A DNA stretch of 64,000 nt from Candidatus Dormiibacterota bacterium (GTDB taxonomy: Bacteria > Chloroflexota > Dormibacteria > Aeolococcales > Aeolococcaceae), in contig CAWBSL010000003.1 of the NCBI GenBank assembly GCA_963791435.1, positions 186,320-250,319 on the forward strand, given 5' to 3'. The notes under the pieces are model-generated. The model saw nothing but the letters and a program-made list of their open reading frames with translations, was not told where the DNA came from and did no database searches. How positions within the stretch are numbered: the first letter of the stretch is position 1; every line of letters starts with the position of its first letter. Below are positions 29,581 through 42,601 of the stretch, piece after piece. A program made the translations under genes and the position numbers.

Positions 29581-30330
29581 TTACGTCGCTACTCGGCCTC
29601 CATCGACTGCAAGAGTGACGCCGTGGACGAAGCTGGCATCATCACTGGCGAGGAAGACGATCGCCGCAGCAAGTTCCTCGGGCTGAGCTACGCGACCTGC
29701 TGGTGCTTGTGCTGCGAGCTGATTCACCATCTCTTCAGGGACTGCTTCCATCGTTCGGGTCCGTGTCGGGCCGGGGGCAACGGCATTGACCCGAACACCA
29801 CGCGGGCCGTATTCGGCAGCCCAGGCCTTCGTCAACAGTTCGAGAGCCGCTCGGCTGGCGCCATACAGAGCCATTCCTGCCTGTCCGAAGCTGGCGACCA
29901 TCGTGGAGACGTTGACGATCGAACCCCATCCGCGTTCGGCCATGGCTGGCGCCAGTGACGCGACGAGGAAGAACGGAACCTTGACGTTGACTGCAAAGCT
30001 CTCGTCGAAGTCTGCTTCGGTGGCTGCGTTGCTTGGTCCGAGCAAGGCGACGCCAGCGTTATTGATGAGGATGTCGACATGACCGTCGCCTGCCTCAATG
30101 GCCCATTTGACCAGGTCCTGGGCTGATTTCAGATCGCTCAACGTAGTGAGCCGGAACGTTGCGCTGCCTCCGCTGCCTTCGATCTCGGCCACCACGTCTT
30201 TGGCTCGTTGTTCGTCGCGACCGACCACCAGTACGTGAACGCCGCGGGCGGCCAAGGCGATGGCCGTCGCCTTGCCGATCCCGCTCGTGGAGCCCGTAAC
30301 CAGAGCGGTCTTGCCCTTCAGGTCAGTCAT
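29581..30330 (-). CDS. Short-chain dehydrogenase/reductase
   Basis: TGSTSGIG, NNAG, VRVNAVAPG, VDGG; the catalytic motif reads YGASR rather than YxxxK. Confidence 0.93.
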   Translation of the reverse strand: MTDLKGKTALVTGSTSGIGKATAIALAARGVHVLVVGRDEQRAKDVVAEIEGSGGSATFRLTTLSDLKSAQDLVKWAIEAGDGHVDILINNAGVALLGPSNAATEADFDESFAVNVKVPFFLVASLAPAMAERGWGSIVNVSTMVASFGQAGMALYGASRAALELLTKAWAAEYGPRGVRVNAVAPGPTRTRTMEAVPEEMVNQLAAQAPAGRVAQPEELAAAIVFLASDDASFVHGVTLAVDGGRVAT

Positions 30331-30356
30331 GCGATGTGCCTCCTGTCGCTACCAAA

Positions 30357-30405
30357 TGGGTTGTGCGACCCACTCTGACACGTCAGAACTGGGTTGTCAA
30401 ACTCA
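30357..30405. promoter_or_regulatory. Two candidate TetR operators
   Basis: TGGGTTGTGCGACCCA (30357-30372) and TGGGTTGTCAAACTCA (30390-30405) lie between the divergent SDR and TetR genes. Confidence 0.6.
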
Positions 30406-30426
30406 AAATTCTGCTAACATGGGTGC

Positions 30427-31032
30427 ATGGTCAACGCGATGAGTGACCGGCCGAGGCTCACCCCCAAGGGAGCACGCACCCGGGCACGAATAGTGGAGGA
30501 GGCCGCCGCCCTGATTCATGAGCGCGGGGTGGCGAGCACCACCTTGGAAGATGTCAAAGCGGCGGCGGAAGTCAGCGGCTCTCAGATGTACCACTACTTC
30601 CCCGACAAGAACGCACTCGTGCAGGCGGTCATCGATCACCAAGCCCAAGCCATCGTCAATAACCAGGGGCAGCTGCTCCGCAGCGCGAACGAAGTCGAAG
30701 CCTGGCGGAAGATGGTGATCAGCGAAGCGAAGCGCACCGAAGCAAAGGGGGGCTGCCCACTTGGCTCGCTCGGTGGTCAACTCGCCGAGTGTGACCCCGA
30801 GGCCCGAGTGCTCATAGCGGCAGGGTTCGATCAGTGGGCAGCCGCCATCGGCGATGGACTCAGATCCCTTCATGCCGACGGGAAGCTCGCGTCGGGGCTC
30901 GACCCGGACGACCTCGCCACTACTCTGCTCGCCACGCTCCAAGGAGGACTTCTACTCGCCCAGGTGCAACGGAGTACTCGCCCGTTCGAGACTGCGGTCA
31001 ATACCCTTCTCGCCCTTGCCACCGGCAAATGA
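30427..31032 (+). CDS. TetR/AcrR family regulator (NemR/LmrA-like)
   Basis: TRARIVEEAA...QMYHYFPDK, GGCPLGSL. Confidence 0.93.
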   Translation: MVNAMSDRPRLTPKGARTRARIVEEAAALIHERGVASTTLEDVKAAAEVSGSQMYHYFPDKNALVQAVIDHQAQAIVNNQGQLLRSANEVEAWRKMVISEAKRTEAKGGCPLGSLGGQLAECDPEARVLIAAGFDQWAAAIGDGLRSLHADGKLASGLDPDDLATTLLATLQGGLLLAQVQRSTRPFETAVNTLLALATGK

Positions 31033-31084
31033 GCCCAAGCCGGGTTCATTCGCAGGAACGCCGAAGTCGGCTTGCAGCACTTGG

Positions 31085-31260
31085 GACGAAGCACGTGCAT
31101 CCGCACACTCCGGTATGACGGCGGCGGGACCGAGTTGCCCAACCTCGTCTTGCTCTGCTATCGCCGCCACGGCTTGGTCCACGAGGGTGGCTGGCAACTG
31201 GCTCGGGGACGAGCACGGCCGCATGCTTGCGATCGCCCCCACCCCGATCTCTCGTACCTG
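31085..31260 (+). pseudogene. HNH endonuclease C-terminal remnant (DUF222-type)
   Basis: DGGGTELPNLVLLCYRRHGLVHEGGWQL; no intact N-terminus. Confidence 0.7.
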
Positions 31261-31412
31261 GACGCGCGCTCCCGATACTCCGCCAGGGCGTAGCGTCGAG
31301 GACGGACTAGAACTGCGTCACACGGGTCCTGTATGCGGTCCGGGTGTCAACGCGGCTCACAGGCGCAGCCGTCGCGCCGGCCCATCCGACCATCAACGCG
31401 GCGCTCGAGTCC

Positions 31413-32303
31413 CTAGCGCACCCGATCCCAAGGACGCGCCGCGCGCAACGCCGAGAGGATCGCGCGTGTCGCAGGCGACCGATTCATCGTGAAGAAGTGC
31501 ACGCCCGGCGCACCACCGGCGAGCAGCTCCGCGCACTGCAGGGTCGCCCACGCAACGCCGAGCTGGAGCACCGCATCGGGGTCGCTCTCCCGCAAGCGCA
31601 ACGCATCCAACAACGGTTCCGGAATCGTTGCGCCGATCTTCGAAGTGAAGCGCGTGATCTGCCCGACGTTCGTGACCGGCATGATCCCCGGGATGATCGG
31701 CACGGTCACCCCAGCCGAGCGTGCCCGTGCGACGAAGTCGAAGTACATCCGATTGTCGAAGAAGAGGTTCGCAATCAGGTAACTGGCGCCGGCGTCGGCC
31801 TTGCGCTTCGCGTTGCGCACGTCCTCGTCGCTGTCCGCCGATTCCGGGTGCTTCTCCGGGTAGCACGCGCCGCCGACACAGAACCCGTAGCGGCTGGTGA
31901 TGAACTCCATCAACTCGCTGGCGTGCGCCAGCCCTCCCTCGGTGGGCACGAATGGCGGCACACCGCCGGGCGGATCGCCGCGCAGCGCGAGCACGTTGTC
32001 GATCCCCGCGTCCCGGAGCCCGTCGAGAATGCCCTGGAGGTCGTCCACGGTCGCGTCCACGCAGGTCAGGTGCGCGACCGGCTCGATGTCCAGCTCGCGG
32101 CGGATACGAGTGACGAGCTCCACCGTCCGGGTGCGGACCGAACCGCCGGCCCCGTAGGTCACCGACACGAACGTCGGCTCGAGCTCGCGTAGAGCGGATA
32201 TCGCCTCGAAAAGCTGGCGGACGCCGTCGTCGGTCTTTGGGGGGAAGAACTCGAAGGAGAAGACCGGCTGCCGGCGCCCTTCGAGGATGCTGTCGAGACG
32301 CAT
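31413..32303 (-). CDS. metF: 5,10-methylenetetrahydrofolate reductase
   Basis: SFEFFPPKT, FVSVTYGAGG, AHLTCV, LALRGDPP, YPEKH, HFFTMN. Confidence 0.96.
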   Translation of the reverse strand: MRLDSILEGRRQPVFSFEFFPPKTDDGVRQLFEAISALRELEPTFVSVTYGAGGSVRTRTVELVTRIRRELDIEPVAHLTCVDATVDDLQGILDGLRDAGIDNVLALRGDPPGGVPPFVPTEGGLAHASELMEFITSRYGFCVGGACYPEKHPESADSDEDVRNAKRKADAGASYLIANLFFDNRMYFDFVARARSAGVTVPIIPGIMPVTNVGQITRFTSKIGATIPEPLLDALRLRESDPDAVLQLGVAWATLQCAELLAGGAPGVHFFTMNRSPATRAILSALRAARPWDRVR

Positions 32304-32330
32304 GGTGAACACCATGCTACGGTCCGCCAA

Positions 32331-33374
32331 ATGCTTGCGGCGTATGCGTCGGCAGTCGGCGGCGACGACCCGTTGGCCAACCTGACGGTCGGCGAGCTGC
32401 CCGCACCCGCGCCCCGGCCCGGATGGGCGGTGGTCAGAGTGCGCGCCGCGTCGCTCAATCATCACGACATCTGGACCTTGCGCGGCGTGTCGTCGTCGCC
32501 GGTCACGCCGCCGCAGATCCTCGGCTGCGATGCGGCCGGAGAGGTCGATGCGTACGGCGGCGAGACGCCCGAAGGTGCCCCGGCCATCGGCTCCCGGGTG
32601 GTGGTCTACCCCATAGTCACGTGCGGCCATTGCGCCGCCTGCCTTTCCGATGAGCCGCTCAGCTGCCGGTCGTTTCACATGCTGAGCGAGGCTCCGCTCG
32701 CCGGTGCGCTTGCCGAGTACGTCGAAATCCCGGCGACGAACCTCGTTCCGCTGCCGGACCAGGTCAGCTATGCGGACGCGGCGTGCCTGCCGACTGCGTA
32801 TCTCACCGCGTATCGGGCGCTCTTCGTTCGTGCCGCGTTGCGACCGGGGATGAGCGTGCTCGTGCAGGGCGCGAGCGGCGGCGTCGCCACGGCGACGATC
32901 CTGCTGGCCCGGCTCGCCGGCATCACCGTGTACGCAACCTCACGCGACGAGGCCAAGCGTGCCCTCGCGGTCGACCTCGGCGCCGAGGCGGCGTTCCCGG
33001 TGGCGCGGGAAACCGCGCGTGCCGTCGTCGGCGCAACCGGGGGAGTCGGCGTGGACGCGGTGATCGACACCGTCGGCGAGCCGACTTGGGATCTGAGCCT
33101 TCGAGCGGTTCGACCTGGTGGAGTGGTCGTGGTCCCCGGAGCCACCGGAGGGCCGAATCCGCCGGCGCAGCTCAACCGGATCTTCTTCCGGAGCATCACC
33201 ATCGCCGGCACCACCATGGGAACGCGCGGAGAGCTGCGCCGCCTTGTCGACCTCATGGCCACTGGCGCCCTCCGACCGCTCATCGGCTCGACCCATCCGC
33301 TTCGCGACGCAGCGGCGGCTTTTGCCGATATGGCAGCCGGCGACCTGCGCGGCAAGATCGTCCTGGAGGCGTGA
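32331..33374 (+). CDS. Zinc-binding dehydrogenase / quinone oxidoreductase (MDR family)
   Basis: SLNHHD, ILGCDAAG, CGHCAAC, GASGGV, GKIVL. Confidence 0.9.
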   Translation: MLAAYASAVGGDDPLANLTVGELPAPAPRPGWAVVRVRAASLNHHDIWTLRGVSSSPVTPPQILGCDAAGEVDAYGGETPEGAPAIGSRVVVYPIVTCGHCAACLSDEPLSCRSFHMLSEAPLAGALAEYVEIPATNLVPLPDQVSYADAACLPTAYLTAYRALFVRAALRPGMSVLVQGASGGVATATILLARLAGITVYATSRDEAKRALAVDLGAEAAFPVARETARAVVGATGGVGVDAVIDTVGEPTWDLSLRAVRPGGVVVVPGATGGPNPPAQLNRIFFRSITIAGTTMGTRGELRRLVDLMATGALRPLIGSTHPLRDAAAAFADMAAGDLRGKIVLEA

Positions 33375-33425
33375 GCCGGATCAGGTGGCCAGGGGCGGCT
33401 GGCGCGCCGTGAGCGTCCTCGAGGA

Positions 33426-34166
33426 GTGAGCCGGGAGCCGGCGGCACCGACTTTCGTGCTCGTGCACAGCGCCAGCGTCGGCCCGTTGCTGTGGGCGGCC
33501 GTCGCCGGCGAGTTGAGAGCGCGAGGGCACGAAGTCCAGGTTCCATCCATGCTCGGCTTTGCGGATGCCGGCCCCCCGTACACACGCGCCTACCTCAACC
33601 GAGCGGCGGCGTCTCTGAACTCGCCGTCGCTCGATGTGCCCGTGCTGCTCGTCGGACATAGCAATGCCGGTCTTTTCCTCCCCGCGATCGCCCAGGTACT
33701 GGCACCGCGCTCTGTGACGCTCATCTACGCCGACGCATCCATTCCACCGATCGACGGTCCTGACGCTCCGATGGCCCCAGACGCATTCCTCGACGATCTT
33801 CGGGGGATGGCGGTCGATGGGATCCTCCCGCGCTGGGGTGATTGGTGGCCGGATGACGTCACGGCGGGCCTCTATCCGGACCCAGCCACACGCCGACGCG
33901 TCGCCGCAGAAGAACCCCGGCTGCCGGTGTCGTTCTTCGAGGAGCGAGTGACCGTCCCGAAAGGATGGGCTCGTCGACCCTGCGGCTACCTCCGCTTCAG
34001 CGAGGGTTACGAGTCAGAGGCCGCAACCGCCACGAGACTCGGGTGGCCGGTTCGTCGCCTCACCGGCGAGCATCTGCACATGCTCATCGACCCAGCCGGC
34101 GTGTCGGTGGAACTCCACGACCTCGCGGCTGCGCTCAACAAGGCGACCACATCCCAGCAACCGTAG
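33426..34166 (+). CDS. Alpha/beta hydrolase
   Basis: FVLVHS, VGHSNAG, EHLHML. Confidence 0.82.
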   Translation: MSREPAAPTFVLVHSASVGPLLWAAVAGELRARGHEVQVPSMLGFADAGPPYTRAYLNRAAASLNSPSLDVPVLLVGHSNAGLFLPAIAQVLAPRSVTLIYADASIPPIDGPDAPMAPDAFLDDLRGMAVDGILPRWGDWWPDDVTAGLYPDPATRRRVAAEEPRLPVSFFEERVTVPKGWARRPCGYLRFSEGYESEAATATRLGWPVRRLTGEHLHMLIDPAGVSVELHDLAAALNKATTSQQP

Positions 34167-34359
34167 ACGCCACAGACAACCGGTGTTACGGTTGCGCAGC
34201 TTCAGCGGTCCACTCCGACCGCGGCGCACAGGGCCTCGTCCAGAAGGTGCAGTGGCGAGGCCCTGTCCGTGTCTCCAGGGTTGCGGAGACCAGGCAATCC
34301 CAGGGCTGAGGGATTGAACTCATGAATGCGTTCCAGAGGCTGTCCGACCTCTCGAGGAC

Positions 34360-34407
34360 AACCAACATGTTGTGGCATACTGGGGGCGCGAACCCAGCAT
34401 CTTGCGG
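34360..34407 (+). promoter_or_regulatory. Tandem NrdR-box-like sites upstream of ftsA-ftsZ-nrdR
   Basis: AACCAACATGTTGTGG (34360-34375) and ACCCAGCATCTTGCGG (34392-34407), 32 bp apart, compared with consensus acaCwAtATaTwGtgt; -10-like CATACT at 34376-34381. Confidence 0.65.
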
Positions 34408-34469
34408 TTTTGTGCCTGAAAACCCTTGAATGGCACAGCCGTGACGGCTACACTCCGGAGACCGATACA

Positions 34470-35705
34470 GTGACCCGTCCTCGCCGCGTCTTCGCACTTG
34501 ATCTCGGCACGACCAAAGTCTGCTGCGCCGTCGCAGACCTTGAGCCCACCGGTCTCCAAGTCTTGGGCGTCGGTCTGGTGGCTTCGAGGGGCGTTCGCAA
34601 GGGCGCAGTGGTCGAGATCGACCGAGCAGCCGAGGCGGTTGCCGAAGCGGTCGACATGGCCGAGCAGATGTCCGGCGTCCCCATCGACTCGGCGGTGGTC
34701 GGGATCGCAGGTGGCCACATCACCTCGCAGAACAGCCGCGGCGTCGTCGCCGTCGAGGCGGGGCATCGGGAGGTCCGCGACCAGGACGTGCATCGCGCCA
34801 TCGACGCCGCACGCGCGGTGAGCGTTCCCTCGGAGCGCCGCATCGTGCACGTGTTGCCGCAGCAGTTCACCATCGATGGTCAGGAGGGCGTGCGTGACGC
34901 CATCGGCATGGCGGGCAATCGCCTCGAGGTCGACGCGCACATCATCACCGGCGCCAACACCGCAATCCAGAATGTGGTCAAGGTTGTCCATAAGGCGGGC
35001 CTCAACGTCGATGACATGGTGTTGCAGGTGCTCGCTTCGGCAGAGGCCGTCGTCACCGAGGACGAGATCGAACGCGGCGTGGTCGTGGTCGATGTCGGCG
35101 GTGGCACGAGCGATATCGCGGTCTTTGCGCGCGGCAGCATCGTGCACACGAGCGTGATTCCGGTCGGCGGCAACCATGTCACCGCAGACCTCGCCGTCGG
35201 CTTGCGCTGCGACCTCGAAACCGCAGAGACCGTGAAACGCAACTTCGGGCATTGCCTGCAGCTCACGTTGCCCGCAGACGCGGAAGTGACCTTGACGCCG
35301 ATGGGCTATGACGAGCCGGTGGGTGTGCCGCAACGGTATCTCGCCGAGATCATCGGTCCCCGCGCACGCGAGATGGCGTCGATGATCGCGGCCGAAGTCG
35401 AGCGCGCCGGGCCACTCGGCATGTTCCCCGGCGGCATCGTGATCACCGGTGGCGGTGCGCTCCTGCGCGGCTTTGCAGAGGTCGTGCAGCAACAGACCAA
35501 CCTCCCCGCGCGCATTGCCGCTCCGCAGGGTCTGCAGGGCATGAACGATGAGATCCGCGGCCCGAGCCACGCCACAGTGGTCGGGCTGCTGCGCTGGGGA
35601 GCCCGGAGCAACCTCGGACGCAAACCCTCACGCTCCAACGGCAAGAGCTCGGACGGCCCGGCCGCCGGGGTCAAACTCTCGAGGTGGTTTCGTGACCTCT
35701 TTTGA
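34470..35705 (+). CDS. ftsA: Cell division protein FtsA
   Basis: [44 protein letters not shown]. Confidence 0.97.
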
Positions 35706-35814
35706 TCATCTGCGCACGCACGGACTCGACCTTCCGGGGGATGCCCTGGCGCGTCGGAGATCCCCCAACTCGCCCCCAACCCGTGAATCCGCAACCCATC
35801 GCGAGGAGACAGGA

Positions 35815-36921
35815 ATGGCAGACCTCGACCGGACACTAGACGGCAACGCCCGCATCCGCGTCGTGGGGGTCGGCGGCGGCGGCAGCAATGCCGTGAACCG
35901 CATGATCCGGAGCAATCTCAAGGGCGTTGAGTTCATCGCGATCAACACCGACCACCAGGCTCTCAGTTCGTCGTCCGCGCACCTGAAGATCCGCATCGGC
36001 GGCAAGCTGACCCGCGGCCTCGGCGCAGGCGGCGATCCTCAGAAGGGCCGCGATGCCGCCGAGGAGTCGCGTGACGAGCTCACCAAGGCGCTCGCCGACA
36101 GCGACATGGTGTTCATCACCGCCGGCATGGGCGGTGGCACAGGCACCGGCGCAGCGCCGATCATCGCGGAGATCGCTCGCGAGTCGGGAGCCCTCACCAT
36201 CGGCGTCGTCACCAAGCCCTTCCGTTTCGAGGGCCTGCGCCGCCAGAAGTCCGCCGAGGAAGGCATCGCCAACCTCCAGGGCCGGGTCGACACGCTTATC
36301 ACCATCCCCAACGAGCGGCTGATGCAGGTTGTGGACAAGAAGACGCCCATCGGCGATGCCTTCAAGGTCGCCGACGACGTCCTCCGTCAGGGCGTGCAGG
36401 GCATCAGCGACCTGATCGTCTTCCCGGGTCTCATCAACCTCGACTTCGCCGACGTCAAGACGATCATGCAGGGCCAGGGCCAGGCGCTCATGGGCATCGG
36501 CTTCGGCAGCGGCGACACGCGCGCCGCGGACGCCGCCAAGGACGCGGTTGCGAGCCCGCTGCTCGAGACCACGATCGCCGGCGCCAAGGGCATCCTCCTC
36601 AACGTCACCGGTGGACCGGATCTCACCCTCTACGAAGTCAACGAGGCGGCGCAGCTGGTGAGCGAGTCGGCTGATGCCGACGCGCAGATCATCTTCGGCA
36701 CCGTCATCGACGAGCACATGAAGGGCGAGGTGAAGATCACCGTCATCGCCACCGGCTTCACGGGCCAGATCGATGTCATCGGTACCCTCAGCTACGAGCC
36801 GTCCGCGCGTCCCGTGGCCTCGGATCAGCGGCAGCCGGCGTTCACTGTCGGCGGGAAGCCCACCGGGCCGTACAGCGTGGATGACCTGGACATTCCCGCG
36901 TTCCTGAGGGACCGTCGGTAG
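35815..36921 (+). CDS. ftsZ: Cell division protein FtsZ
   Basis: [26 protein letters not shown]-terminal DIPAFLR. Confidence 0.99.
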
Positions 36922-36930
36922 GTTTGGGCC

Positions 36931-36981
36931 TTGGGATGAGGCTCCGGTGGCCATCGTGCGAGCGGCCGGAGCCCGTCCCAA
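36931..36981 (+). terminator. Long stem-loop between ftsZ and nrdR (no U-tract)
   Basis: TTGGGATG-A-GGCTCCGG ... CCGGAGCC-CGTCCCAA. Confidence 0.45.
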
Positions 36982-36999
36982 CCTCCTAGGGATCAGCAC

Positions 37000-37540
37000 G
37001 TGAAGTGCCCGTTCTGCGGCGAGACGGATATCAAGGTCGTCGAACTCGCGAGACTCCGAAACCGGTGAGGCGATCCGCCGACGCCGTGAATGCCTTGGCT
37101 GTGGCAAGCGTTTCACCACGTATGAGCGCGTCGAGGTGCCGTCGCTCTACGTCGTCAAGAAGGACGGCAGACGCGAGGAGTTCAACCGGCAGAAGCTCCT
37201 CTCGGGTCTGGTCATGGCGTCGAAGAAGACTCGCCTGGCCCCGGCAAACCTCGAGATGATGGTGGCCGACATCGAGAATGGGCTGCGCAGCCAGAACATT
37301 TCCGAGGTCCCGAGCCGCGAGGTCGGCGCCATGGTGATGGCGCGATTGCGCGAGATTGACGAGATCGCGTACATTCGATTCGCTTCGGTGTATCGATCCT
37401 TCAAGGACGCGCAGGAGATGCGCGCAACCATCGAGGATGTGCTGGCGCATCCCCCTGGCACTCGCCCTGACACTGCCCGCCGGCAGCGTAAGCGACGTGA
37501 CACCGAGGGTCGCGAACTCCCGCTCGACCTCGGCAAGTAG
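37000..37540 (+). CDS. nrdR: Transcriptional repressor NrdR; apparent frameshift at 37042-37047
   Basis: MKCPFCG; removing one A restores VVDSR; then IRRRRECLGCGKRFTTYER, ATP-cone VVKKDGRREEF, AYIRFASVY. Confidence 0.94.
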
Positions 37541-37544
37541 CGTC

Positions 37545-38243
37545 GTGGCGGAGGATTCGGTGCCGGTCGCGGACCGGCTCGAGGCAGTTCGTGGTCGAAT
37601 CGACGCCGCTGCCTCGCGCGTCAATCGCGACCCGCTCGACGTTCGCCTCATCGCCGTGACCAAGGGCGTGAGCGCGGCCCGGGTCGACGAGGCGATCAGC
37701 GCCGGGATCCAGGACCTTGGGGAGAATCGGATCCAGGAGGCCGCCGACAAACAGAACGCGGTGCGGCACCCTGCCCGCTGGCACATGATCGGACACCTCC
37801 AGACCAATAAGGCGCGTCGCGCGGCGGCCCTCTTCGATTTCGTGCATTCCGTCGACAGCGAGCGAGTCGCGGAGGCGCTGTCGACACATCGACCACCGGG
37901 GCTCGATCCAATCGGGGTGCTGCTCGAGATTGAGTTGACAGGGCAGGCAACTCGCTTCGGTGTTCAGGAGGGAGACGTTGAAGGCGTCGTGCAGCAGCTC
38001 GTCAACGTCTCCCACATTCACCTGATGGGGCTCATGACCATCGCACCCTTTTCGGATGATCCCGAGGATGCGCGGCCGACATTCGCCAGGCTGCGTCACA
38101 TCCGCGATCACATGGAGCACGCGATCGGGTGGGCCCTTCCCGAGTTGAGCATGGGCATGAGCAACGACTTCGAGGTGGCGATCGAAGAAGGCGCCACGAT
38201 GGTGCGGGTCGGCCGGGCAATCTTCGGCGAACGAGTGGTATAG
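37545..38243 (+). CDS. yggS: PLP homeostasis protein
   Basis: LIAVTK, GENRIQE, WHMIGHLQTNK, GLMT, LSMGMSNDF, VRVGRAIFG. Confidence 0.95.
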   Translation: MAEDSVPVADRLEAVRGRIDAAASRVNRDPLDVRLIAVTKGVSAARVDEAISAGIQDLGENRIQEAADKQNAVRHPARWHMIGHLQTNKARRAAALFDFVHSVDSERVAEALSTHRPPGLDPIGVLLEIELTGQATRFGVQEGDVEGVVQQLVNVSHIHLMGLMTIAPFSDDPEDARPTFARLRHIRDHMEHAIGWALPELSMGMSNDFEVAIEEGATMVRVGRAIFGERVV

Positions 38244-38292
38244 GGCGCCCCTGCAGTTCGGCTGCGAACGATCTGCCGGTATCCTTGAGGTG

Positions 38293-41190
38293 ATGCCAAG
38301 GTATTCAGCCGTCAGCGCACGCGCGGGTTTTCCCGAGGCGGAGCTCGAGATCCTCGAGCTCTGGCAGCGAACTCATGTCTTCGAACGCAGCCTCGCGATG
38401 CGTCGTGACGCGCCGCCGTACGTGTTCTACGAGGGGCCGCCCACCGCAAACGGGCTGCCTGGTCTGCACCACGTCCTCGCCCGGTCCTACAAGGACGTTT
38501 TCGCGCGATACAAGCAGATGACCGGTTTCTCGGTGGCGCGGAAGGCCGGCTGGGACACACACGGGCTGCCGGTCGAGCTCGAGGTGGAGCGCGCGCTCAA
38601 GATCAGCGGCAAGAAGCAGATCGAGGAGTACGGGATCGCCGAGTTCAACGCGCGCTGCAAGGCGTCGGTGAACGAGTACATCGACCAGTGGCGGGAGATG
38701 AGCGAACGCCTCGGCTTCTGGCTCGATTTCGACCATCCCTATCGCACCTACGACGGCACGTACATGGAGTCCGTGTGGTGGAGCCTGAAGGAGCTCTGGG
38801 ACGACGAGATGCTCTACCAGGGCTACAAGGTCACGCCGTACTGTCCGCGCTGTCAGACGACACTCTCGTCACACGAGCTGAGCCAGGGCTACCGCGAGGA
38901 CACGTCGGATCCGTCCGTCTACGTGAAGTTCCGGCTCAACGACTCGGACGGCAAGACGTTTCTCCTGGCATGGACGACCACGCCGTGGACGCTCCCAGGC
39001 AACGTTGCGCTGGCGGTGCATTCCGGCAAGCCGTACGTCCGCGTCGCGCAGAACGGCGAGACGTACATCCTTGCGAAGGAACGTCTTTCCATCCTCGAGG
39101 GCGACTACGAAGTCCTCGACGAGATGGATGGACGGGACCTCGTCGACGTGACCTACGAGCCGCTCTTCACCGACATGCTTCCGGACGGCCTCGCGTTCGT
39201 CGTGCTCGATGCGCCGGAGCTGGTGAGCATGGATGAGGGCACGGGCATCGTGCATACCGCTGCTGCGTATGGCGTTGCGGACCTCGAGCTCTGCCAGCGG
39301 AAGGGCATCGCGATCCGCCACGTGGTGGGTCTGGACGGCAGGTTCCTCGACGGTCAAACGCGCTATCGCGGATTGTTCGTCAAGGACGCGGACCCGAAGA
39401 TCATCGACGACCTGCAGGAGCAGGGGAGTCTCTATCGCGCGGAGCGGATCCTGCACACATATCCCTTCTGCTGGCGGTGCGACACGCCGTTGCTCTACTA
39501 CGCCATCACCTCGTGGTTCATCCGCACCACTGCGGTCAAGGACCGTCTCCTCAAGCACAACCGCAGCGTGCGCTGGCAGCCGGCGCACATCCGTGACGGG
39601 CGGATGGGCAACTGGCTCGAGAGCCTGATCGACTGGAACCTGTCGCGGAGCCGGTACTGGGGGACGCCGCTCCCTATCTGGGTGTGCGACGCCTGCGATG
39701 AGAAGTTCTGCGCAGGGAGCGCCGCCGACGTGGGACTGACCGTCGACGACGATCTGCACCGGCCGTTCATCGACGAGGTCACGCTGCCGTGCAAAGCATG
39801 CGGCGGCGTCATGCACCGCGTCCCCGAGGTCATTGACGCCTGGTACGACTCGGGCGCGATGCCCTTTGCGCAGAAGCACTATCCCTTCGAGAACAAGGAG
39901 GCGTTCGAGCACACGCACCCCGCGGATTTCATCTGCGAGGGCGTGGATCAGACACGCGGCTGGTTCTTCTCTCTGCTCGCCGAGTCGACGCTGCTCTTCG
40001 ACCTGCCGGCATACCGGAACTGCGTCGTCGTGGGCACGCTGCAGGACAAGAACGGCAAGAAGATGTCGAAGTCGCGGCGCAACACCATCGAGCCCGACAC
40101 CATCTTCGATCAGTTCGGCGCGGACGCGGCGCGCTGGTACTTCTACGCGCAGGGCGTCGAGAACGCCGAGTTGCGCGTGAGCCCCTCGTCATTTCAGGAC
40201 GTGGTGCGGCTTTTCATGCTCACGCTCTGGAACGTCTACTCGTTCTTCGTCACCTACGCACTCACCGAGGGCTACGATCCGGCGTCGGCCGCGCCCGCCG
40301 TCATCGAGCGACCCGTCCTCGACCGCTGGTGTCTCGCCCGCCTGGCCGAGACCGTCGAGGGAGTGCGCGAGGCAATGGAGCGGTACGACGCGTCGGATGC
40401 GGTGCACGCCGTAGAAGCGTTCGTTGAGGATCTTTCCAAGTGGTACGTGCGCCGCTCGCGACGTCGCTTCTGGAAGAGCGCGGGGACGAGCGACGACTCG
40501 GCGTCGGCCTTCGCCACGCTGCACACCGTGCTGCTGACGCTGGCCGGTCTTGTGGCGCCGTTCATGCCCTTCATGGCCGAGCGTATGTACCGCAACCTCA
40601 GCGGCTTCAACGGTGACCCTCCGTCGTCGGCGGGAGCGCCGGATTCCGTGCACCTGACCGACTACCCCAAGGTGTTGGGAGCGTGGCGCGACACCGAGGT
40701 CATCGCCGAGATGAGCCGTCTGCGCCGCCTCGTGGAGGACGGGCTCGCCGCACGGACGACGGCCGGTGTGCGCGTCCGCCAGCCGCTCGCGTCCGCGACT
40801 CTCGCAAGCACGCCGCTCAACCCCGAGGTCGAGGCGATCTTCATGGAAGAGCTCAACGTCAAGCGCGTGAGCTATGTCGATCCCGAGGGCGCGCACGCCG
40901 CGGTTGTCTTCGACACGACGATCACCGACGAACTCCGCCTCGAATGGCTCGCGCGCGAGATCAGTCGCAAGGTGAACGACCTGCGTAAGCAGGCCGAGCT
41001 GCGCGTCGAGGATCGGATCACGTTTCTCGTGGACGCAGACGGCGATGCAGCGCGCGCGGTCAGCGCATATCGCGACTGGTTGATGGGGGAGACGCTCGCG
41101 GTGGCGATCGAGGACCGCCGCGACACCGCGCTCACGGAATGGGAAGGCGAGCTGGGAGGTGCACGGTGCTGGCTGGGAGTACGGCGGTAG
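38293..41190 (+). CDS. ileS: Isoleucine--tRNA ligase (IleRS2 type)
   Basis: EGPPTANG, GWDTHGLPVE, WTTTPWTLP, SRSRYWGTPLP, EGVDQTRGWF, KMSKS, WYVRRSRRRFW. Confidence 0.97.
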   Translation: MPRYSAVSARAGFPEAELEILELWQRTHVFERSLAMRRDAPPYVFYEGPPTANGLPGLHHVLARSYKDVFARYKQMTGFSVARKAGWDTHGLPVELEVERALKISGKKQIEEYGIAEFNARCKASVNEYIDQWREMSERLGFWLDFDHPYRTYDGTYMESVWWSLKELWDDEMLYQGYKVTPYCPRCQTTLSSHELSQGYREDTSDPSVYVKFRLNDSDGKTFLLAWTTTPWTLPGNVALAVHSGKPYVRVAQNGETYILAKERLSILEGDYEVLDEMDGRDLVDVTYEPLFTDMLPDGLAFVVLDAPELVSMDEGTGIVHTAAAYGVADLELCQRKGIAIRHVVGLDGRFLDGQTRYRGLFVKDADPKIIDDLQEQGSLYRAERILHTYPFCWRCDTPLLYYAITSWFIRTTAVKDRLLKHNRSVRWQPAHIRDGRMGNWLESLIDWNLSRSRYWGTPLPIWVCDACDEKFCAGSAADVGLTVDDDLHRPFIDEVTLPCKACGGVMHRVPEVIDAWYDSGAMPFAQKHYPFENKEAFEHTHPADFICEGVDQTRGWFFSLLAESTLLFDLPAYRNCVVVGTLQDKNGKKMSKSRRNTIEPDTIFDQFGADAARWYFYAQGVENAELRVSPSSFQDVVRLFMLTLWNVYSFFVTYALTEGYDPASAAPAVIERPVLDRWCLARLAETVEGVREAMERYDASDAVHAVEAFVEDLSKWYVRRSRRRFWKSAGTSDDSASAFATLHTVLLTLAGLVAPFMPFMAERMYRNLSGFNGDPPSSAGAPDSVHLTDYPKVLGAWRDTEVIAEMSRLRRLVEDGLAARTTAGVRVRQPLASATLASTPLNPEVEAIFMEELNVKRVSYVDPEGAHAAVVFDTTITDELRLEWLAREISRKVNDLRKQAELRVEDRITFLVDADGDAARAVSAYRDWLMGETLAVAIEDRRDTALTEWEGELGGARCWLGVRR

Positions 41191-41690
41191 CCGGCGGCCA
41201 GCGCGTCTCCCGGCGTCGGATCTACGTGGTCATGCTCGGCACCGCTGCGGCGGTCGCGATCGTCGACCACGTCACCAAGTGGCTGGTCGCCACGCACCTG
41301 TACATCGGGCAGCAGATCTGGCCTGGATCATTCGTGTCCATCGACCATGTCGAGAACAGCGGCGCCGCATTCAGCGTGCTGCCGCAGTTGCACTGGCTGT
41401 ACCTCGCGGTCGCGCTGATCGTCAGCCTGTACATCGTTCTCTCGGGATACAAGTACGGCACGACGTGGTACCGCCAGGTTCTCATCGGCATGATCCTCGG
41501 CGGCGCGCTCTCCAACGGCGTCGACCGACTGATCAACGGTTCGGTGGTGGATTTCATCGACTTCCATTTCTGGCCCGTGTTCAACGTCGCCGACAGCTGC
41601 ATCGTCGTCGCGATCCTCGCGCTGCTCGTGCTCAGCTTCGTCCCGACGTCGCACAAGCCCACCTCATCCGCGTCATCGGCCCCGTCATGA
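41166..41690 (+). CDS. lspA: Lipoprotein signal peptidase II
   Basis: DHVTK, NSGAAFS, GGALSNGVDR, VVDFI, FNVAD; GGAGG precedes GTG 41166. Confidence 0.94.
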   Translation: MLAGSTAVAGGQRVSRRRIYVVMLGTAAAVAIVDHVTKWLVATHLYIGQQIWPGSFVSIDHVENSGAAFSVLPQLHWLYLAVALIVSLYIVLSGYKYGTTWYRQVLIGMILGGALSNGVDRLINGSVVDFIDFHFWPVFNVADSCIVVAILALLVLSFVPTSHKPTSSASSAPS

Positions 41691-42601
41691 GCTCCGGCAC
41701 GGCAACCGTGGTCACGCCGCGGCTCGACATGTGGCTCGCCAACTCGCGCCGCATCACACGTCACGCGGCGAGGACGCTCATCGATGCCGGGCTCGTCACC
41801 GTCGACGGTCGTCCGGGCAGACCGGGTCAGCGCGTTCGCGACGCTTCTGAAGTGGTGGTCACGCCACCGGAGGTGGTGATCACCATTCCGGCGACGCGGC
41901 GGGACCCCGTGGAGTGGCCGGTCGAATTGCGCATGGTCTTCGAGGACGACTGGCTCGCCGTCGTGGACAAACCGTCCGGCATGGTGGTCCATCCCGCACC
42001 GGGACATCCGACCGGAACTCTCGCCGACGCGCTCAAGGAACGTGGGACCACCTGGTCGCTCCTCGGTGGCGCCGAGCGCGCCGGCATCGTGCACCGCCTG
42101 GATCGCGACACGAGCGGGTTGCTGGTCGTGGCCAAGACCGAGGCTGCGCATCGCAACCTGGCCCGGCAGCTCAGTGATCGCTCGCTCGGGCGCACGTACT
42201 GGGCGCTCGTCCACGGAGGGTTCCGCGAGGACACCGGGACCATCGACGCGCCGATCGCGCGTCATCCTCGCGACCGGCGGCGCATGGCGATCGTCGAGGG
42301 GGGCCGAGAGGCAATCACCGACTTTCGCGTGGTGGAACGCGTCGCCGGCGCGACCGTTCTCGATCTCTCCTTGCGCACCGGGCGGACGCACCAGATTCGC
42401 GTGCACCTCGCGTCGATCGGTCACCCGATCATCGGCGACGCGGTGTACGGACGTCCGGATCCGAACCTGCGGCGCCCTGCCCTGCACGCGATGCGCCTGA
42501 GGCTCCGGCATCCGGCCGACGGCACGGAGCGGTCGTACGAGTCGCCGGTGCCGGACGAGCTTGTGGCCGCCGCCGCCAGGCTCCGCCCAGCGGACGAATG
42601 A
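41687..42601 (+). CDS. RluA/RluD family pseudouridine synthase
   Basis: S4 domain, KPSGMVVHP, HRLDRDTSG, TGRTHQIRVH. Confidence 0.95.
   Translation: MSSGTATVVTPRLDMWLANSRRITRHAARTLIDAGLVTVDGRPGRPGQRVRDASEVVVTPPEVVITIPATRRDPVEWPVELRMVFEDDWLAVVDKPSGMVVHPAPGHPTGTLADALKERGTTWSLLGGAERAGIVHRLDRDTSGLLVVAKTEAAHRNLARQLSDRSLGRTYWALVHGGFREDTGTIDAPIARHPRDRRRMAIVEGGREAITDFRVVERVAGATVLDLSLRTGRTHQIRVHLASIGHPIIGDAVYGRPDPNLRRPALHAMRLRLRHPADGTERSYESPVPDELVAAAARLRPADE

Follow-up and report, generated by a model that had tools for sequence, protein, structure and literature searches.

Tandem NrdR-type boxes before ftsA-ftsZ-nrdR in Dormibacteria suggest a link between DNA-precursor supply and cell division

The coupling of replication to division by routes other than SOS or nucleoid occlusion is an open question in bacteria. 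The regulator NrdR is called a ribonucleotide reductase (RNR)-specific repressor in current papers (bioRxiv 10.1101/2024.05.27.596032). Carrying dATP and ATP, it binds paired boxes as a tetramer, and with ATP alone it does not (PMC12051234, PMC13584703). Tandem NrdR operators at RNR promoters (S. coelicolor nrdRJ and nrdAB; E. coli nrdAB, nrdHIEF and nrdDG; L. monocytogenes) consist of two 16-bp partial palindromes with a linker of 15-16 bp (PMC13584703, PMC12051234). We analysed a window of 64,000 nt from an uncultured soil bacterium of the class Dormibacteria. In this window the division genes ftsA and ftsZ, followed by nrdR, are preceded by two 16-bp partial palindromes that match six and five of the six conserved NrdR positions, with a 16-bp linker. 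We consider it probable that the two 16-mers are a genuine tandem NrdR operator, which would control ftsAZ and autoregulate nrdR.

The boxes before ftsA, their genome-wide specificity and their conservation

The two boxes were located as follows.

34360-34375, no strand: NrdR box 1, AACCAACATGTTGTGG, 6/6 conserved positions, 18.5 bits
34392-34407, no strand: NrdR box 2, ACCCAGCATCTTGCGG, 5/6 conserved positions with G at position 6, 10.6 bits

The original prediction reported two 16-mers 32 bp apart that match six and five of the six strongly conserved consensus positions, and the sequence confirmed this. The boxes are 32 bp apart from start to start, and the pair ends 63 nt before ftsA. The six conserved positions of the NrdR consensus are C4, A6, A8, T9, T11 and G13 (PMC13584703, section 7), of which C4 and G13 are contacted by Asp15 and Arg17 of NrdR (PMC13584703, section 10). 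Both of these critical contacts are present in both ftsA boxes. For the deviating position of box 2, an A6G change in both boxes is reported to cost only a 4- to 10-fold loss of affinity (PMC13584703). Linkers of 15-16 bp are typical and 14-17 bp are tolerated (PMC13584703, PMC12051234), and the published minimum of A/T between C4 and G13 is 63% (PMC13584703, section 10). Positions 5-12 are A/T at 6/8 in box 1 (75%) and at 5/8 in box 2 (62.5%). On sequence grounds, the 16-bp linker, the C4/G13 contacts and the tolerable A6G change agree with the published NrdR binding rules.

A symmetrised weight matrix was built from 21 distinct boxes found upstream of nrdJ and its orthologues only, the ftsA boxes being left out. 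The whole genome (3,114,830 positions, 3.1 Mb; completeness 91%) was scanned for pairs with a sum of at least 20 bits and at least 5 bits in each box, and the reversed genome and a first-order Markov sequence served as decoys. Some tallies include genomes flagged unpublished, and none of their loci were used. At a spacing of 32 bp five pairs were found; the remaining spacings between 16 and 59 gave 0-2 each, which adds up to 6 pairs for all 43 of them. The decoys contained no pair at spacings 31-33, neither in the reversed genome nor in the Markov sequence. The five pairs, in order of their scores, were:

C2:439009-439056 (locus L099, 3510-3557): pair before smc, 32.7 bits, the strongest in the genome
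Before nrdJ: 30.6 bits, with a -35 (TTGACG) upstream and box 1 over the -10 position (by eye)
Before ftsA, in this window: 29.1 bits
C1:1273121-1273168 (locus L100, 3622-3669): pair before an IMPDH-family gene (386 aa), 27.0 bits
Before a methyltransferase gene: 23.4 bits, second box weak, doubtful

A matrix made from the nrd boxes of the lineage thus recovered the ftsA pair, as had been proposed, and placed it third of five genome-wide. Box 1 alone scores 18.5 bits, a value that is equalled or beaten at 2 of the 3,114,830 positions, and the 10.6 bits of box 2 are equalled or beaten at 83 positions. Single sites of at least 18 bits numbered 4 in the genome, and 2 and 1 in the decoys. Because single boxes are near background, the evidence rests on the pair, its spacing and its conservation.

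The one RNR gene of the genome is nrdJ-like (class II) and sits on another contig; neither an RNR small subunit nor NrdD was found in the genome at its 91% completeness, and the only ATP-cone in it is that of NrdR. The nrdJ gene is preceded by two boxes exactly 32 bp apart, and the best nrdJ pair has this same spacing in 50/50 loci of relatives, of which 30, with our own among them, belong to the genus and 20 to the sister family. As a side observation, nrdJ (C1:1371271-1375465, minus strand) is an open frame of 1398 aa here and of about 990 aa in many congeners. The extra part starts with Cys after ...SKPQISA, and it resembles an intein that some strains have and others lack.

The smc gene is split here into pieces of 392 and 769 aa (locus L099, 3589-4767 and 4832-7141); in six other congeneric genomes it forms one open frame of 1194 aa. 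Box 2 of its pair contains the -35 (TTGACG), only 7 nt separate the -10 (GACAAT) from the ATG, and the mRNA appears to be leaderless. Before the IMPDH-family gene, a -10 (TAGAAT) lies 6 nt before the ATG; a GATase/GARS_N gene is next downstream.

Conservation before ftsA was examined in the family of this genome (f1), in the sister family (f2) and in three other families of the class (f3-f5). Within the genus both boxes are identical in 30/30 loci, our own included. The region from box 1 to the start codon is nearly invariant, and the approximately 90 nt before it are highly variable (22 of the 30 genus loci, by blastn). The f1 sample outside the genus comprised 20 loci from 15 other genera, with FtsA 64-86% identical. 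In 19 of these 20 loci (14 genera) a pair of 22.7-33.9 bits with a spacing of 31-33 bp was present. It begins 105-109 nt ahead of the ftsA start, except in one locus where this distance is 89 nt. These 19 loci and this window (G000) make up the 20 family rows of our alignment. In box 1, C4, A8, T9, T11 and G13 are kept in 20/20 rows and A6 in 19/20. In box 2 the same five positions are kept in 20/20 rows, and position 6 is G in 11, A in 7 and T in 2. Variation among the rows falls on positions 1-3 of box 1 and on most of the linker. An invariant core within drifting sequence is what a protein-binding site with the NrdR contacts known from the literature should show. The pairs upstream of smc are likewise found in 9/10 f1 genera and 2/2 f5 loci, and in weak form in 2/2 f4 loci; they were not found in 4 f2 and 2 f3 loci. 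Conservation of the boxes before ftsA in relatives, on which the original prediction had been made to depend, was thus seen in 30/30 genus loci, in 19/20 other-genus f1 loci and, as at least one strong box, in 15/15 f2 loci.

Promoter geometry and the sign of control

If the tandem operator is genuine, NrdR loaded with dATP and ATP would bind both ftsA boxes and modulate transcription of ftsA and ftsZ. From the ftsA operator it would modulate its own gene too, since in f1 nrdR has no further NrdR box or promoter-like site in front of it. The sign would most likely be repression, as at RNR promoters. At low dATP relative to ATP, as under replication demand, ftsAZ, smc and nrdJ would be co-expressed, and as deoxynucleoside triphosphates (dNTPs) accumulate the three would be turned down together.

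The elements that bear on the promoter were as follows; promoter calls rest on conservation and not on a promoter scan tool.

34376-34384, + strand: extended -10-like element TGGCATACT in the 16-bp linker, 85 nt before the ftsA GTG at 34470
34408-34425, + strand: A/T-richer stretch TTTTGTGCCTGAAAACCC between box 2 and the -35, conserved in the family alignment as cGGtTt.Gc...ga....cc
34426-34454, + strand: proximal promoter P2 (TTGAAT, 17 nt, TACACT), with family conservation of the -10

The -10 conserved in the family is TATACT, represented here by TACACT at 34449-34454, and the -35 is weak (TTGAAT at 34426-34431 in this window). The -10 lies 41-42 nt after box 2 in 18/19 other-genus f1 loci with a pair (not in L194), and 41 nt after it here, counted by eye. 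From the -10 to the start codon there are 11-12 nt in f1 loci and 15 nt in this window. The -10 is so near the start codon that the ftsA mRNA would be nearly leaderless. An extra C at 34455, directly after TACACT, is missing in 21/21 aligned congeners and in an RNA-library contig; it is probably one more assembly error of a single base, and it makes the -10 seem farther from the start codon. Several promoters of the lineage have a -10 only 6-15 nt before the start codon (e.g. L099 3560-3591, L100 3700-3714 and 34449-34472), which suggests that leaderless or near-leaderless mRNAs are frequent in Dormibacteria.

These positions changed part of what had been proposed. The element described as TGnCATACT is present in the linker at 34376-34384, but it is not conserved, as CATACT occurs in only 4/20 family rows with a pair. 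We therefore set TGGCATACT aside as the main promoter: it is not conserved beyond a few genera. The proposed geometry, an ftsA promoter flanked by the two boxes, probably does not hold: since the conserved -10 lies downstream of box 2, the main ftsA promoter probably maps elsewhere than the linker. Within the genus, TGGCATACT may serve as an upstream promoter, P1; its start is predicted at about 34391 and would lie under box 2. In RNA libraries from two studies, contigs of relatives extend as far as about 34396 and about 34404, beyond the start expected from TACACT, which is a weak hint that P1 is used. These libraries were represented by small-share Logan contigs of relatives (share at most 0.10; 16 runs, 13 studies), of which four runs were examined; such contigs show neither starts nor strand, DNA may be in the libraries, and uncovered parts are no evidence. 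A GGTTTT...AAAACC repeat after box 2 was considered as a conserved hairpin or second operator and was rejected, because its palindromic form is inconsistent from genus to genus.

Counted from a start near 34461, the box centres fall at about -61.5 and -93.5. In f2 the distance from the box to the -10 was measured in 14 loci and is either 31 nt (9 loci) or 41-42 nt (5 loci), values one helical turn apart. In f4 the box ends 17-20 nt before the -10, as counted from the sequences, and so covers the -35 position, the classical placement of a repressor. The f1 boxes lie clear of the conserved core promoter, so simple occlusion is not assured and repression is only the more likely sign of control.

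This geometry allows a second version of NrdR control, in which NrdR would act at ftsA as a dATP-dependent class I-type activator that recruits RNA polymerase, and not as a repressor. The box centres at about -61.5 and -93.5, the adjoining A/T-richer stretch, which may be placed like an UP element (upstream promoter DNA touched by the alpha subunit of RNA polymerase), and the distances held at 41-42 or 31 nt all point in this direction. Activation is a real alternative because the site lies off the core promoter but at a fixed helical phase to it; we nevertheless hold it to be unlikely. If it were true, NrdR with dATP would shut nrdJ and smc after replication and switch ftsAZ on, a one-protein switch from replication phase to division phase in a bacterium.

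A stem-loop at 34205-34290, upstream of the variable spacer, is strongly conserved in the genus (GACCGCGGCG.ACAGGGCCTCG...CGAGGCCCTGT). For the + strand the predicted fold has -49.7 kcal/mol with z -3.8, and for the - strand it has -51.5 kcal/mol with z -4.9. It has no Rfam match and no U-tract, and part of it is also found in another genus (L183). An Rfam search of 30000-42000 at E of at most 1 returned no RNA family.

Linkage to nrdR and alternative explanations

The genes downstream of the boxes were identified by Pfam:

34470-35705, + strand: ftsA, 411 aa, GTG start; FtsA 4.5e-38, SHS2_FTSA 6.4e-30
35815-36921, + strand: ftsZ, 368 aa; Tubulin 5.4e-50, FtsZ_C 6.2e-35
36922-36999, + strand: ftsZ-nrdR spacer, 78 nt, with a stable stem-loop and no U-tract
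37000-37540, + strand: nrdR, broken frame; Zn_ribbon_NrdR 37000-37065, ATP-cone 37136-37537 (open reading frame 37136-37540)

A YggS-like gene and then ileS follow nrdR. The order ftsA-ftsZ-nrdR on the same strand, with no RNR downstream, was borne out: by Pfam the genes after the boxes are ftsA, ftsZ, nrdR, yggS-like and ileS, and the only RNR lies on another contig. FtsZ is 99% identical to that of a metagenome-assembled genome labelled Candidatus Dormibacteria. The upstream neighbours are unrelated to division (SDR, TetR, MTHFR, Zn-ADH and a 246-aa open reading frame that has no Pfam match).

The gene nrdR comes next after ftsZ in 20/20 loci of f1, 5/6 of f3 (the sixth locus is cut), 4/4 of f5 and 10/10 of f4. 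The position of the box in these clusters was distributed as follows.

f1: before ftsA 19, before nrdR 0, neither 1
f4: before ftsA 7, before nrdR 2, neither 1
f3: before ftsA 0, before nrdR 5, neither 0
f5: before ftsA 0, before nrdR 4, neither 0

Boxes at both places were found in 0/39 loci of these four families. In f3 (5/5) and f5 (4/4) a strong box lies in the ftsZ-nrdR spacer, just before nrdR, and no site of at least 11.1 bits was found before ftsA; in the cut f3 locus a site at -234 scores 11.0 bits. Such either/or placement would fit one autoregulatory site per ftsA-ftsZ-nrdR cluster. In this window, the matrix scan gave no NrdR site of at least 13 bits in the ftsZ-nrdR spacer, a promoter and terminator scan of 36800-37700 gave 0 promoters and 0 terminators at its thresholds, and an RNA-library contig of a relative covers 36774-36991, crossing the ftsZ stop. 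Mainly because of the either/or placement, we infer that ftsZ and nrdR are co-transcribed.

The same facts could mean that the operator serves only to autoregulate nrdR, via whichever promoter drives it, with an incidental effect on ftsAZ and no selected coupling to division. The constant position of nrdR after ftsZ in f1, f3, f4 and f5 and the absence of any cluster with both boxes favour such a view, and autoregulated nrdR operons are known, e.g. the co-transcribed nrdRJ of Streptomyces (PMC4409342). The sister family speaks against it. In f2, nrdR does not follow ftsZ in any of 15/15 loci, and nrdR-yggS is found elsewhere in 5/5 genomes. Before ftsA, 15/15 loci have nevertheless retained a strong palindromic box (CCACAACATGATGTGG or a variant of 1-2 bases). 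It reaches 12.9-14.9 bits in the 14 loci for which a score was obtained, and in the 14 for which the distance was determined it is in phase with the -10. The f2 box carries a T11A change, the mirror of A6T, and A6T was tolerated in a published mutational study (PMC13584703). As f2 keeps the ftsA box though nrdR has moved away, control of ftsAZ seems to be retained for its own sake. Moreover, the pairs before smc in f1 and f5 suggest a wider cell-cycle regulon, and a shared promoter would mean that ftsAZ is regulated anyway. Autoregulation as the sole function is in our judgement distinctly unlikely. In f2 the gene before ftsA carries an FtsQ-type POTRA domain and the boxes lie in the ftsQ-ftsA spacer; separation of ftsAZ from the other division and cell wall (dcw) genes, originally proposed to allow independent control, is thus not needed.

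A number of observations weigh against an NrdR operator that acts on ftsAZ and nrdR. Box 2 alone is background (sites of at least 10.6 bits: 83 in the genome vs. 163 and 78 in the decoys), and its A/T content between C4 and G13 (5/8) is right at the published limit. Judged by the -10 conserved in the family, both boxes are upstream of the -35 and clear of the core promoter, whereas the pairs at nrdJ, smc and the IMPDH-family gene of the same genome overlap theirs. A promoter scan of 34100-34600 gave no site at threshold; P2 matches 8/12 positions by our own count vs. a threshold of 9. The hairpin in the ftsZ-nrdR spacer (-41.3 kcal/mol, z -3.35) might be a place of termination or processing of the transcript. 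The partner box is weak or degenerate in f2 and f4: in f2, 32 bp upstream of the strong box, 6-7/8 core positions are matched in 6/15 loci and the matrix gives -18.7 to -0.4. In g9, an f1 genus with reduced genomes and lower GC (loci L196, L236, L247 and L248), the nrdJ pair is kept (28-29 bits in G069 and G077), and no pair was found at ftsA or smc in G069, the one g9 genome checked there; this looks like natural loss of the extended regulon. Finally, nrdR reads as a pseudogene in this assembly.

The break in nrdR is a +1 frameshift caused by one extra A at 37043/37044, which cuts the Zn-ribbon from the ATP-cone at the DNA-contact motif VVDSR. The extra A has no counterpart in 27/27 congeneric loci, which read VVDSR, or VVNSR in three, and in which nrdR is intact over the aligned stretch. 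It is also missing from an RNA-library contig of a relative. An intact NrdR orthologue matches solved NrdR structures at 1.6e-41 and keeps VVDSR. Since 27/27 congeners lack the extra base and other lone indels occur in this 3-contig assembly, the frameshift is probably an assembly error.

The palindromes might also be bound by another regulator, or be promoter or structural elements that resemble NrdR boxes by coincidence. In favour of this, conserved palindromic flanks (GCAAA...TTTTGC) extend box 2 past the NrdR core, the boxes are found upstream of the conserved -35 and not over the core promoter, and single boxes of this strength arise by chance in the decoys. Set against this, the same core (C4, A8, T9, T11, G13) and the spacing of 31-33 bp recur in all 50 nrdJ loci of relatives, the genome has only five pairs of this kind while the decoys have none, and the published critical positions are invariant while other positions drift. 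A coincidental likeness to NrdR boxes is therefore, in our view, very improbable. That the match is a functionless chance event, with a true nrdR pseudogene and a relic operator, is the least credible of all: the +1 frameshift at 37043/44 and the background score of box 2 as a single site would fit it, but the extra base is unique to this assembly (27/27 congeners lack it), other lone indels occur in it (the split smc and the extra C at 34455), and the boxes are identical in 30/30 genus loci.

A tandem NrdR operator before ftsA-ftsZ-nrdR thus stays the probable explanation. The proposal that NrdR controls ftsAZ and itself gained support in two respects, as the pair is specific and conserved and as self-control fits the either/or placement (both sites in 0/39 loci); binding by NrdR is predicted from these patterns.

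Comparison with known NrdR systems

In the titles, abstracts and passages of NrdR papers that were covered, no report of NrdR boxes at ftsA, ftsZ or smc was found; Rodionov & Gelfand 2005 and RegPrecise were outside this search. If the proposed control is true, a sensor of dATP/ATP would link DNA-precursor supply, chromosome segregation and Z-ring synthesis directly by transcription, and the boxes suggest that in an uncultured soil bacterium of the class Dormibacteria nucleotide supply is wired directly to division. The compilation and the database just named may list further candidates, reportedly topA, dnaA and similar replication genes. That the box is placed variously, in front of nrdR, ftsA or smc, offers a natural series for studying regulon expansion. 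Binding assays with heterologous NrdR proteins and DNA are established (PMC13584703, PMC12051234), so the link is testable in vitro even for an uncultured class.

An RNR-specific NrdR regulon would have target operons that encode an RNR; compared to the operators at RNR promoters, the genes behind the boxes here are ftsA-ftsZ-nrdR, with no RNR among them. About 18 nt separate the boxes from the conserved -35 downstream, so that they are not placed over it. A partial precedent for this placement is S. pneumoniae nrdHEF, in which both the -35 and the -10 lie downstream of box 2 (PMC12051234, section 2.1). The only tested non-RNR target of NrdR found in the literature passages covered is topA of Pseudomonas (PMC4409342). 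In P. aeruginosa, topA is likewise a DNA-related target, shown to be functional by box mutation and in an nrdR mutant; it differs in having a single box at which NrdR activates (PMC4409342), whereas the present case is a predicted operator of two boxes with canonical spacing before division genes. In Streptomyces nrdRJ, nrdR is co-transcribed in an operon headed by NrdR boxes and is autoregulated (PMC4409342); here the partners would be ftsA and ftsZ instead of nrdJ, in a co-transcription that is predicted. A dedicated factor at a division-gene promoter, as proposed here, is also seen with WhiA/WhiB at Streptomyces ftsZ (PMC3781837, PMC4850268), but those are other regulators with other motifs, which respond to developmental signals and, in the passages available, do not sense dATP/ATP. 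The type of operator is thus known; what appears to be new, in the literature covered, is its placement before ftsA-ftsZ and smc across the family and beyond.

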